Shown: positions 1 through 4,182 of the stretch, piece by piece
How the letters are laid out: each line of letters starts with the position of its first letter
Numbering within the stretch: position 1 is the stretch's first letter
Assembly: GCA_035493235.1 (NCBI GenBank)
Contig: DATJIP010000106.1
Span: 26,610 to 90,609 of the forward strand
DNA from: Steroidobacteraceae bacterium
Lineage (GTDB): Bacteria; Pseudomonadota; Gammaproteobacteria; Steroidobacterales; Steroidobacteraceae
Direction: 5' to 3'
Length of the DNA stretch: 64,000 bases
The notes under the pieces: model-generated
Database searches by the model: none
Told to the model about the DNA's origin: nothing
What the model saw: the letters and a program-made list of their open reading frames with translations, nothing else
Position numbers and translations under genes: made by a program

Positions 1-1371
1 ATATCGAAGCCGACTGAACCACGGATGCGGGTAACTTTCCGGCAGCGTGAAGCTATCGCGCAGCTGCACACTCACGAGCTGCGAGCCCATGAGCAGGGCA
101 GGGCGGATATCGCTCAGCTTTCCGCCGAACAGCCAACGCCGGATCGATCTCAGCAGCACGGCGCCTGTCGATCGCTCAGTGCGCAGCGCGACTTCAGATG
201 CGAGTCGCAGCGCTGCGAACCGCGGCCCGTGGCGTCGCAAGTAGTCGGTCACCGCATACGAGAAGGAGTCGCTGCAGAATCCAGAGTCGCCGCCGTCGCC
301 CGTGAACACTGCGCTGACTTTGCGTTCAACCGCCAATCGATGATCGAGCGTACTGCGCATCATGTACGACAGCAGCGACTGCGGCTCAGTTGCTGGGCGC
401 TCGCGCACCAGATCGGCAAAGTTGATCTCGGCAGGAAGGACCGGGCACTCAAGATGCTCGAAACCGCTGTGTTCAGCCGCGAGCCGCGCCCATGGACGCT
501 CGTCCGAACGACCTTGCGGGTTGAAGAACGTGTAGCACGCGATTCGCGGTTGCGTGGAAGCGCGAGCGAGACAGCCAGCGATGATCGAAGAATCCAGTCC
601 GCCAGACAGTCGGTGCAGCAAGCTCGCGTGGCCGGCCGACAGCGTTTGCGTGCACGAGCGGACGGTGGCGCGCACGGCGGTGGCCGCATGCACTGGATCT
701 TCGATCACGCTTCGCCGCTGCAAAAACGCGAAGGGATCCCAGTAGAAGCACCGTGATCGCAGCGTCGGACGCCTCGCGGGATCGATCTCGACACACTCGC
801 CGTGACGGATCTGCCGTACTTTCTCGAGCGCATCGGTCGCGACGTCGTTGAAGCCGAGTACGCGCTCGCGCAGATACGCGCGGTCGACGCCGAATCCTCG
901 CACCCCGAGCTCGATGCAAGCGCCGACGTGCGAGAACAGAATCGTGACATCTTCGAAGCGGGTTTCGAAGCAGGGCAGCGTGCCCGTTGGATCTTTCAAC
1001 ACGCGAACGATGCTTGCAGCGGCGGCGCGAAGTAGTGCGACGTAATTACCCCAGCAGTTCTCGATCAGCCATCGCCCTTTGCTGGCGAGGATCGCCTCGC
1101 AACTGCGCGCGCTGAGAACTGCGCGTCGCGCCGGGGAATCGTCGTCGACGTCGCGGTTACGCTCAAACAGAGTCCCGAGAATCACGCCGGCGTTGCGTGC
1201 GAGCGGCAGTGCTCGCAGCGTGCCGCCTTCGTCCGCACAGAACACCCGCAGTCCAGGGCTGGCGAATGCACGCGTCCAATGCCTAGCGCGCAGCCGCTCG
1301 TCCAGCGAGTCCGCCGTGCGGGATTGCTGCTCGTCGATGACGTTCCAGACGAGCGCAATGTAGCGAAACAT
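1..1371 (-). CDS. Lasso peptide cyclase (asparagine synthetase-like C protein), 3' end runs off the window
   Basis: Manually translated open frame of 457 codons from ATG 1371 (MFRYIALVWN...) with no stop to base 1. Motifs VLKDPTGTLPCF, LSGGLDSSII (PPi loop) and FTGDGGD. Lies downstream of lasso B and the precursor. Confidence 0.9.
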   Translation of the reverse strand, partial: MFRYIALVWNVIDEQQSRTADSLDERLRARHWTRAFASPGLRVFCADEGGTLRALPLARNAGVILGTLFERNRDVDDDSPARRAVLSARSCEAILASKGRWLIENCWGNYVALLRAAAASIVRVLKDPTGTLPCFETRFEDVTILFSHVGACIELGVRGFGVDRAYLRERVLGFNDVATDALEKVRQIRHGECVEIDPARRPTLRSRCFYWDPFAFLQRRSVIEDPVHAATAVRATVRSCTQTLSAGHASLLHRLSGGLDSSIIAGCLARASTQPRIACYTFFNPQGRSDERPWARLAAEHSGFEHLECPVLPAEINFADLVRERPATEPQSLLSYMMRSTLDHRLAVERKVSAVFTGDGGDSGFCSDSFSYAVTDYLRRHGPRFAALRLASEVALRTERSTGAVLLRSIRRWLFGGKLSDIRPALLMGSQLVSVQLRDSFTLPESYPHPWFSRLRY

Positions 1372-1425: not shown

Positions 1426-2145
1426 TCAAACCGTCAGGATCGGCGTGTACTCGCAAACCTGCTCGGGATTCGCGTCGAGCAGCAGCTTGCCCTGTTGCAC
1501 CCAGGCGTGCGCTCCCCAGGGCTGCGCACGCACACCGATCACCCAAGTCGGAAACACGTCATGGCGCGCCATGAATCGCACCAGCGCCAGCGAATGGAAC
1601 AGGCAGCGGTCCCGCGCTGCGAACGTATGCGGCCGCAGCCGCCGGAAGAGCCCGACCAGTTCGACGGCTCTCTGCTCGTCGAAAGCGCCGCTCGCGGCGG
1701 CCTTCTGATCGCGGACTTCGCTCGCGATTGCGTACAGAGTGCGCGAGCGCAGAGCATGACGCGTCCAGGCGAGCGCGCCGAGAAAACTTGCGATGTGGGC
1801 CAGGCGCAGCGACGTGCTGCGGCTCAACTCGTGTCCTGCGCTGCTGAGAACCCCGCCCAGATCCAGCGGTGGAGCACCGAAACTCGTGCGCTCGGCAGGA
1901 GGATCGCGACTCAGCAACCCGGCATCGAGCAGCGCGTCGGCCATGGCGATGGCTGCGTCGGGTGCGAGCTGTTCGACGGCGGCCGCGCTACCGTTTGCGT
2001 CATTCCAGTTCAGTGCGAGCGTCGCGAGCGCACGCGCTTCGGTCGAGCCGATGCCGAAGTATCGATTGCGCTTCAAATCCAGCAGGATCGTGCTGGCGAG
2101 CAGCGGACAAACTCGAACGTGCGCAGGAATCCAGTATTCGTGCAT
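1426..2145 (-). CDS. Lasso peptide B protein (N-terminal RRE-like region + transglutaminase-like leader peptidase)
   Basis: LLDLKRNRYFGI N-terminal segment; C-terminal DRCLFHSLAL...VIGV...GAHAWVQ...LLD Cys-His-Asp triad. Start at 2145 or 2181. Confidence 0.9.
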   Translation of the reverse strand: MHEYWIPAHVRVCPLLASTILLDLKRNRYFGIGSTEARALATLALNWNDANGSAAAVEQLAPDAAIAMADALLDAGLLSRDPPAERTSFGAPPLDLGGVLSSAGHELSRSTSLRLAHIASFLGALAWTRHALRSRTLYAIASEVRDQKAAASGAFDEQRAVELVGLFRRLRPHTFAARDRCLFHSLALVRFMARHDVFPTWVIGVRAQPWGAHAWVQQGKLLLDANPEQVCEYTPILTV

Positions 2146-2188
2146 AGAGAAGGCGGGTGCGTGCCCGGCACGCACCCGCAACGATCGC

Positions 2189-2305
2189 TCAGAACGGCAG
2201 CAGACCGAAGGCAGTCAGGTTGTCGATGAACAGCGGCAGCACGGCGATTTGCCGCGTCTCGACCATTGCATCTCCGAGATCCACGAGCTGAAGTTTGATC
2301 GTCAT
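2189..2305 (-). CDS. Lasso peptide precursor A, MTIKLQLVDLGDAMVETR-QIAVLPLFIDNLTAFGLLPF
   Basis: Manual translation. AAGGGGA RBS upstream of ATG 2305; leader motif LVDLGDAxxET with Thr at -2; directly upstream of B and C. Confidence 0.88.
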   Translation of the reverse strand: MTIKLQLVDLGDAMVETRQIAVLPLFIDNLTAFGLLPF

Positions 2306-2746
2306 GACGGTTCCCCTTGTTGAAGTAACTTGGCTTGCGAAACGAATCTCCCTGCGCGCGCAAACCTGCGCCTATGTACGATGATGTCAATAAGCAGCGA
2401 TATCATTCGCGCGCGTTTGCGTGCACATATCTATGGATGTGCGTAGTTAGGACTATTCGGCAAAGCACGAGCGAAGCTGCGGTCGCGGTGACAGTCTTGG
2501 CTTATTGGAAAATATCTTTCGCTCGTTGGCGCCAATTGCTTCGATCGATGGCGAAGGATGCAAGCCAACAACACTTGATCTGACACAGACACTGCGTTGC
2601 GCGTACGTGTGCACGCGGCGGCGAAATTACTGCAGCAATCGCAAGGCTTTGCAGGCCGCAGTGAGTCGTGCGGGCGAGCTCGCGCGGTACACCCTTAAGC
2701 CCGCGCGCGCAGGGTTGTGGCAGGTTGCTGGCGAAGGACAACGCCG

Positions 2747-3111: not shown

Positions 3112-4182
3112 TCAGCGGCGGGCGCCGGCGCTGACTCGCGCCGCCGTCGCAGGTGCGTGGCTGGCGTTCGAGTACAGCTCTCCTTCCGACTCTTCCTCTT
3201 CCTCGAGTTCGACCTCGACCTCGACCTCCCACTGCGGCTCCGATACTTCTAGTTGGATGCGTGCGAGCGGTACGACGTCGTGCAACGCCGTCAGCTTGAA
3301 CAGCTCCGGTCGGCACAGACGATAGCGACTGACGGCAACGGAGAGCGTCGAAGGATCGCGACGCAGATAGCGCGCGACTTCGCTCAACGTTGCCACGCGC
3401 CGCTCGGTCGCATACCAGGCGATGAGTGCGCGTGCGAGTGTGACCTCACGCTGACGTGAGTTCGAGAGCACGTGCTCGCGATCGACGCCGAGCCGGCACG
3501 TCACGGTCTGGATGATCTGCTCCAGCGTGAGCTTGCTGCGATAGACACGCAGGTGGCGCGGCAGGTTCTCGAGGAACTCCGGACTCGCGACGATGCGTGC
3601 ATCGTGCCTGCTGCCGTGTTCGAACAGGGTGCACTCCTCATGCACCGGCGCGACCGCCATGAACTCGGCGTATTCGCTGTTCTGATCGCACCCGCTCAGC
3701 AGCTTCATTGCCGTGCGCGTGGTCAACCAGGGGATCTCGACCTTGCCGAGATATGCGCCATGGCTCGTAAACGGATACGCAGTGGGATCGCCGCCCAGTC
3801 CCTCGCTGACCGGCAGGTGATGGATGTAGCGGACCAGCTTCAGCAGGTACGCATCGGGATCGATCAGGATCGCCTTGTAGCGCTGCCGGAAGAAGTGGCC
3901 GTACTCCGCTGCGCGCTCATGAATGCTGCGCGCGTAGCGACTGGTGATGCCCTGCATGAAACGTCCGACCGACACGCTGTCGATCTGCAACGCGATGTGA
4001 ATTGCGTCTGGTGTCCAGCAGTACGCATGCAGACGCGCGCCGGTCCGGCGCAGCGCTGTTGCGAGCAGACGTTCGAAGAGCTGGTAGTCCGTGTGCTGGG
4101 AGAAGATGGGGCGAGTCGTACTGCCCCGCTGGACTACGTAGTACGTTCCTCCCGGAACGTGCAGTCGTTGACGACGCGACAT
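3112..4182 (-). CDS. RAYT/Y1 HUH transposase-like protein with C-terminal DnaA domain IV-like HTH; HUH motif degenerate
   Basis: PGGTYYVVQRG...PIF, AYCWTPDAIH (canonical AYCLMPNHxH), RFFxQRYKA-like segment, YPFTSH; C-terminal SRQREVTLARALIAWY...RRDPSTL; GGAGG RBS. Confidence 0.8.
   Translation of the reverse strand: MSRRQRLHVPGGTYYVVQRGSTTRPIFSQHTDYQLFERLLATALRRTGARLHAYCWTPDAIHIALQIDSVSVGRFMQGITSRYARSIHERAAEYGHFFRQRYKAILIDPDAYLLKLVRYIHHLPVSEGLGGDPTAYPFTSHGAYLGKVEIPWLTTRTAMKLLSGCDQNSEYAEFMAVAPVHEECTLFEHGSRHDARIVASPEFLENLPRHLRVYRSKLTLEQIIQTVTCRLGVDREHVLSNSRQREVTLARALIAWYATERRVATLSEVARYLRRDPSTLSVAVSRYRLCRPELFKLTALHDVVPLARIQLEVSEPQWEVEVEVELEEEEESEGELYSNASHAPATAARVSAGARR

Follow-up and report, generated by a model that had tools for sequence, protein, structure and literature searches.

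On the minus strand of the analysed window, a stretch of 64,000 nucleotides from a Steroidobacteraceae bacterium (GCA_035493235.1, contig DATJIP010000106.1, positions 26,610 to 90,609), we identified a small gene that encodes a lasso-peptide precursor, followed by intact genes for a lasso B protein and an Asn-synthetase-type C protein. The window corresponds to positions 26610-90609 of contig 106 of the genome (G000:C106); coordinates labelled L004 refer to a piece of the same contig that extends before the window start. The features of the locus are as follows.

2189..2305 (-): lasA precursor gene, 38 codons plus TGA, encoding MTIKLQLVDLGDAMVETRQIAVLPLFIDNLTAFGLLPF
2252..2305 (-): leader peptide (18 amino acids), MTIKLQLVDLGDAMVETR, with the conserved LxDLGDAxxET[KR] motif and Thr at position -2
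2192..2251 (-): core peptide (20 amino acids), QIAVLPLFIDNLTAFGLLPF, with Gln1 (CAA, 2249-2251), Pro6, Asp10 (GAC, 2222-2224) and Gly16
2312..2318 (-): Shine-Dalgarno sequence AAGGGGA, 6 nt before the lasA ATG
2153..2179 (-): perfect 12-bp GC-rich hairpin with a 3-nt loop, between the lasA stop and the lasB start
1426..2145 (-): lasB, a fused leader-binding and transglutaminase-like cysteine protease, 239 amino acids from the conserved ATG
1..1371 (-): lasC, an Asn-synthetase-like lasso cyclase, of which the first 457 of 608 amino acids lie in the window and the rest before its start (full length at L004 11545-13371)
2306..2700 (-): conserved non-coding region upstream of lasA, of unknown regulatory role
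3112..4182 (-): syntenic gene with Y1_Tnp-like and DnaA-C HTH domains (PF01797 and PF08299)

The sequence-only reading had described the core (2189-2251, which is exactly the 20 codons plus the stop codon) as almost wholly hydrophobic, with Asp10 as its only acidic residue, and this is correct in every detail. The core contains no Lys, Arg or His, and its GRAVY of 1.47 is the highest among 101 family representatives, the median of which is -0.13. LasB matches PF13471 (2.8e-15) and the lasso B2 model NF033537 (3.2e-18), with only a weak hit for the N-terminal PqqD-like part (E 0.005); its Cys, His and Asp (C193, H225 and D236 in the numbering of the 251-amino-acid open reading frame) are invariant in 14 homologues. 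The full-length LasC matches PF00733 (5.3e-27) and contains the SGGLDS ATP-pyrophosphatase motif. The hairpin has a minimum free energy of -30 kcal/mol (z -2.57) and was flagged as terminator-like. A strong stem of different sequence occupies the same place in most of the 24 orthologue and paralogue loci that were folded, which fits differential stability or attenuation between the precursor and enzyme messages. The Shine-Dalgarno sequence is conserved in orthologues. An alignment of the upstream region from 8 loci showed 76% mean identity with long invariant blocks, including a TTGACA box, the palindrome ATATCCATAGATAT and the block GTGTCAGATCAAGTGTTGTTGGCTT; no sigma-70 consensus promoter was predicted, and the region could hold operator sites or a small RNA.

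Conservation of the precursor and its neighbourhood

The identical peptide occurs on 111 public contigs, and orthologues in five cultured strains are deposited as ‘hypothetical protein’. Homologues of LasB were found in 27 of 61 related genomes, and a scan of the genome collection gave 53 loci; upstream of each close homologue is a precursor of the form DLGDAxxET[RK]-Q-x4-P-x3-D-[SN]. Among 26 distinct DNA versions that match this pattern, 24 are orthologues of the window gene with Gln1 and one is the Glu1 variant of Peristeroidobacter soli JW-3 (ESGMYPIVFDSYYLLGERVP; GAA versus CAA). Overall, position 1 is Gln in 24 (CAG 11, CAA 13) and Glu in 2, and Asp10 is encoded by GAC in 22 and GAT in 4, so the amino acids are preserved through synonymous change. 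The sequence-only reading had asked whether Gln1 and Asp10 define a conserved family; they do.

To evaluate the wider distribution, a profile of 43 precursors was searched against 1.84 billion cluster representatives and returned 266 hits at E up to 0.001. Of the best 150, 101 have their only acidic residue in the range 7-11 at position 10, 12 at position 11, 21 at position 9 and 4 at position 8; 12 are ambiguous. The profile was built mostly from Asp10 members, so the share of 101 of 150 is biased upward. Gln is residue 1 in 81 of 101, 12 of 12 and 17 of 21 of the first three classes, and Cys1 occurs in 11; several relatives with a spacing of 9 start with Glu or Asp. The family motif is Q1-x-x-x-x-P6-x-x-x-D10-[SN]-[ILV]-x-x-x-G16. 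A metagenomic cluster (L095 4001-4770) carries two precursors with the ring Asp at position 11 (QGSPTPPVYVDAIYGHGSKPTLED and ARLPWPPTYPDAAFGFGAYPFLSE) upstream of a B gene; the spacing therefore reaches 11, and it occurs with a canonical Ala1. In addition, a lasso-precursor-like gene (leader DLELIDLGDATVETK, core QCDPYMPIYPDSIFGYGSESIPWPGCPR, with Asp11 and Cys2...Cys26) lies between the small and large terminase genes of a Mu-like phage, just before the portal gene (Logan contigs L096 2617-2766 and L097 1078-1227), with no B or C gene within about 5 kb. A tree of B proteins left the backbone unresolved, and monophyly of all Asp10 clusters is neither shown nor rejected (AU p 0.37).

A second, convergent lasso operon lies just outside the window (L004 8720-11541, about 3.3-6.1 kb before the window start). 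Its precursor has the leader MEQLEIIDLGDAMMETR and the core CTSVPAVSVDSLYGPGHARC, and its B and C proteins are 50% and 45% identical, respectively, to those of the window. Cys1, Asp10 and the C-terminal Cys of this paralogue are conserved in 8 loci and 11 global representatives. The operon is preceded by an ECF sigma factor, a FecR anti-sigma protein and a 1,002-amino-acid TonB-dependent receptor (L004 3816-8458). Across the genus the gene order is conserved: a Nudix-like gene, the gene with Y1_Tnp and DnaA-C domains, then lasA, lasB and lasC, followed by a convergent receptor, FecR and ECF sigma factor. The order is found in S. agaridevorans, P. soli and S. flavus, and the receptor/FecR/ECF sigma module is syntenic in these and two MAGs, some of which carry two or three extra FecR/sigma copies in tandem; the Cys...Cys operon is an extra insertion found in the clade of the window. 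In one MAG (G007:C9, L092 9600-14100), the B and C genes of the Cys...Cys operon and lasC of the Gln operon match in two or three shifted frames, which could reflect assembly indels or decay. The gene with Y1_Tnp and DnaA-C domains is found at 62-89% identity in the same position in five other genomes of the genus, and is possibly a domesticated regulator of the cluster rather than a mobile element. No ABC exporter is adjacent, and no S9 isopeptidase lies in the 29 kb around the cluster; the best match in the genome is 28% identical and lies on another contig. By contrast, relatives with 8- and 9-residue spacing carry a convergent Peptidase_S9 gene directly after C.

It is improbable, although not excluded, that the cluster is silent or decaying in this genome, or that it yields only a linear or pyroglutamyl peptide. 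This reading is compatible with the absence of expression data, of a predicted sigma-70 promoter and of an exporter, and with the report that all other refactored lasso clusters expressed in Escherichia coli in the study that described metanodin gave no product (PMC12670498). However, lasA, lasB and lasC are intact with conserved catalytic residues, the peptide is under purifying selection across many species, and the ribosome-binding site and hairpin are conserved.

Leader cleavage and predicted ring size

The size of the ring depends on where the leader is cut. The sequence-only reading offered either a ten-residue Gln1-Asp10 ring or cleavage one residue later, and the comparative data favour the first option. 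Five lines of evidence point to cleavage between ET[KR] and Gln. First, the leader is homologous to the curated benenodin-family model (NF033522); leader residues 6-18 match profile positions 10-22, and in every subfamily tested the match ends at profile position 22, the residue after Thr, whereas true members continue into a Gly or Ala core at position 23. Second, the residue after Thr behaves like a -1 position (K83, R64, T2 and L1 among the representatives, and Gln in one precursor, P0039, which reads ETQ before Gln1), and the next residue is almost invariant; L10, G11, E16 and T17 are invariant in 43 aligned precursors. Third, position 2 is the most variable ring position (W14, V11, T9, A9, L8, S8, I8 and G7 in the Asp10 class) and is Pro in several relatives (QPPLVGFD, QPSVPFAVD and QPAPIGHVFD), and position 3 is Pro in most of the nearest relatives of the window peptide (QLPILPLFFD). 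A Pro N terminus for the isopeptide has no precedent, so only Gln1 works for all members. Fourth, Cys1 in the paralogue family always co-occurs with a C-terminal Cys at the same Asp10 spacing, and in several Gln1 peptides Cys2 pairs with a distal Cys, so residues 1 and 2 are inferred to be retained in the product. Fifth, metanodin, the only characterized lasso peptide from this order, was shown by tandem mass spectrometry to use Thr(-2) and Asn1, and its authors note Gln at that position in a Steroidobacteraceae relative (PMC12670498). MAFFT independently aligned all ring-closing Asp residues in one column, with 1-2 gaps inside the 8- and 9-residue rings.

Cleavage one residue later, with Thr at -3 and an Ile1-Asp9 nine-residue lasso of 2,055.181 Da, is considered unlikely. 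Ring sizes in the superfamily would then be 7-10 instead of 8-11, which would bring most of the family back inside the 7-9 rule; large hydrophobic first residues such as Trp1 of fusilassin appear to exist, and an invariant Gln could be a P1 specificity determinant. However, the variable and sometimes Pro residue at position 2, the end of leader homology at ET[KR], the implied retention of Cys1 and the Thr(-2) of metanodin weigh against this reading, and the Asp11 class would still have ten-residue rings. Cleavage two residues later, giving an Ala1-Asp8 ring and a product of 1,942.097 Da, is very unlikely. Position 3 is Ser, Ala or Gly in 48 of 101 Asp10 representatives, and Gly in most cultured-strain orthologues (such as QYG, QWG and QSG), which would give a canonical eight-residue ring. 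Yet position 3 is Pro in most of the closest relatives and Leu, His, Phe, Tyr or Met in others, Thr would sit at -4, which has no precedent, relatives with Asp8 would have 6-residue rings, and the pairing of Cys2 implies that residue 2 is retained. We also considered a transglutaminase-type reaction on the Gln1 side chain and rejected it, because the core has no Lys or other amine acceptor.

We therefore infer, with moderate confidence and without biochemical evidence, that this is a functional lasso-peptide operon that follows the standard route. LasB would bind the LVDLGDAMVETR leader and cut after Arg(-1), guided by Thr(-2), to free Gln1; LasC would adenylate the side chain of Asp10, the only carboxylate side chain in the core, and the alpha-amine of Gln1 would close a ten-residue (31-atom) macrolactam around the pre-folded tail. 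The product would be an uncharged, very hydrophobic 20-mer of 2,183.239 Da. The tail motif [YF]13-G14-x15-G16-[W/L/R]17 is strongly conserved (Gly16 in 83 of 101), which suggests that Gly16 lies in the plane of the ring, with Phe15 above it and Leu17/Leu18 below it as plugs; this fits the proposal of Phe15 and Leu17 as plugs in the sequence-only reading, but does not prove it. Several observations weigh against this reading: the window peptide has Thr13 where the family usually has Tyr or Phe, its plug candidates (Phe15 and Leu17) are modest for a 31-atom ring, every characterized natural lasso ring has 7-9 residues, a change of ring size by one residue usually cripples other lasso cyclases, and Gln1 has not been shown experimentally in any lasso peptide.

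It is possible, but unlikely, that the Gln1-Asp10 isopeptide forms and the enlarged ring cannot hold the tail, in which case the product would be an unthreaded branched-cyclic lariat or a lasso that unthreads easily. The ring would have 31 atoms, against 29 for the largest known rings (9 residues closed on Glu); the window peptide lacks the Tyr/Phe13 and Trp15/Trp17 that are common in the family; and some 8- and 9-residue lassos already unthread on heating. However, lasso cyclases close the ring around a pre-folded tail, the conserved [YF]13-G-x-G16 motif suggests structural constraint beyond the ring, and engineered ten-residue fusilassin variants were reported as lasso peptides.

Function is the weakest part of the interpretation. 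The sequence-only reading considered a membrane or signalling role possible, and a role in signalling or uptake gains contextual support from the conserved TonB-dependent receptor, FecR and ECF sigma factor, which suggest that the peptide is probably sensed or taken up by its producer. Pfam found no STN signalling domain in the N terminus of the receptor at E up to 0.1, so a role as transducer rests on the FecR/ECF context alone. More tentatively, the window peptide may represent a large, unrecognized clade of natural lasso peptides (at least 113 clusters at 50% identity), with Gln1 carrying the ring-forming amine and macrolactams of 10 or 11 residues, that has lost the isopeptidase but kept a dedicated TonB-dependent transducer, FecR and ECF sigma factor; its peptides would act as self-produced ligands for cell-surface signalling or re-uptake rather than as antibiotics.

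Comparison with known lasso systems

A 2022 review gives rings of 7-9 residues as part of the definition of lasso peptides, and a June 2026 review lists structurally characterized natural rings of 7, 8 and 9 residues only. Searches for natural 10- or 11-residue rings, for Gln1 or for lasso peptides from Steroidobacter found only the metanodin paper in the searchable literature, which excludes subscription-only papers. The enzymology of the window operon is canonical, while its predicted ring size, first residue and cluster make-up are not. The 7-9 rule is written into reviews and probably into mining tools such as RODEO and antiSMASH, so a natural clade with 10- and 11-residue rings would be missed or mis-cut. 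If confirmed, the family would widen the known ring range, show how a larger ring is kept threaded, add Gln to the known first residues and supply cyclases naturally tuned to bigger rings, which is useful for lasso engineering. The receptor/FecR/ECF sigma partners, without an isopeptidase, would also provide a tractable system in which to address what non-antibiotic proteobacterial lasso peptides do.

Metanodin, a soil-metagenome lasso peptide from Steroidobacterales (J Nat Prod 2025, PMC12670498), shares with the window peptide a fused B, an Asn-synthetase-type C, Thr at -2, an amide-bearing first residue and the absence of disulfides, and its precursor was also missed by automated tools. Homology between its leader and the one described here is inferred from gene size (99 bp), the tail motif and the similarity of its B and C proteins to those of Steroidobacteraceae. 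The tandem mass spectra of metanodin fit a ring within the usual size range, probably nine residues from Asn1 to Asp, and its cluster carries an S9 isopeptidase; here the spacing is 10, the first residue is Gln, no isopeptidase is adjacent and the core is extremely hydrophobic.

Benenodin-1 of Asticcacaulis benevestitus and its family (NF033522) have a homologous leader motif, LIDLGDAxxET[KR], and nearby TonB-dependent receptor and sigma/anti-sigma genes. Benenodin-1 has Gly1, an 8-residue ring, a polar tail and an isopeptidase. The window peptide scores 17.3 bits against the curated cut-off of 33, and only over the leader, whereas true alphaproteobacterial members score 36.7 and 38.2 over the whole profile.

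Fusilassin (fuscanodin) has a very hydrophobic core with a bulky first residue, and two reviews describe its enzymes, the reconstitution of which was reported in PMC7368380, as accepting rings of 7-10 residues, the only reported ten-residue lasso rings. It is actinobacterial with split B1/B2, its natural ring has 9 residues (Trp1-Glu9) and the ten-residue ring is an engineered variant rather than a natural product.

For the neighbouring paralogue CTSVPAVSVDSLYGPGHARC, Cys is residue 1, as in class I lasso peptides, and a second Cys could tie the ring to the tail, as in the disulfide-bearing classes I and III. The predicted ring is Cys1-Asp10 (10 residues), and a single disulfide from Cys1 to the C-terminal Cys would be, to our knowledge, a pattern not seen in classes I-IV.

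Isopeptidase-type proteobacterial clusters (astexins, caulosegnins and rubrinodin) likewise have no ABC exporter and are flanked by a TonB-dependent transporter and a FecI/FecR-like pair, and close 8- and 9-residue-ring relatives of the family described here carry the S9 isopeptidase. In the Gln1-Asp10 clusters, the TonB-dependent receptor follows lasC directly, no isopeptidase is present, and a gene with Y1_Tnp and DnaA-C domains replaces the usual GntR regulator.
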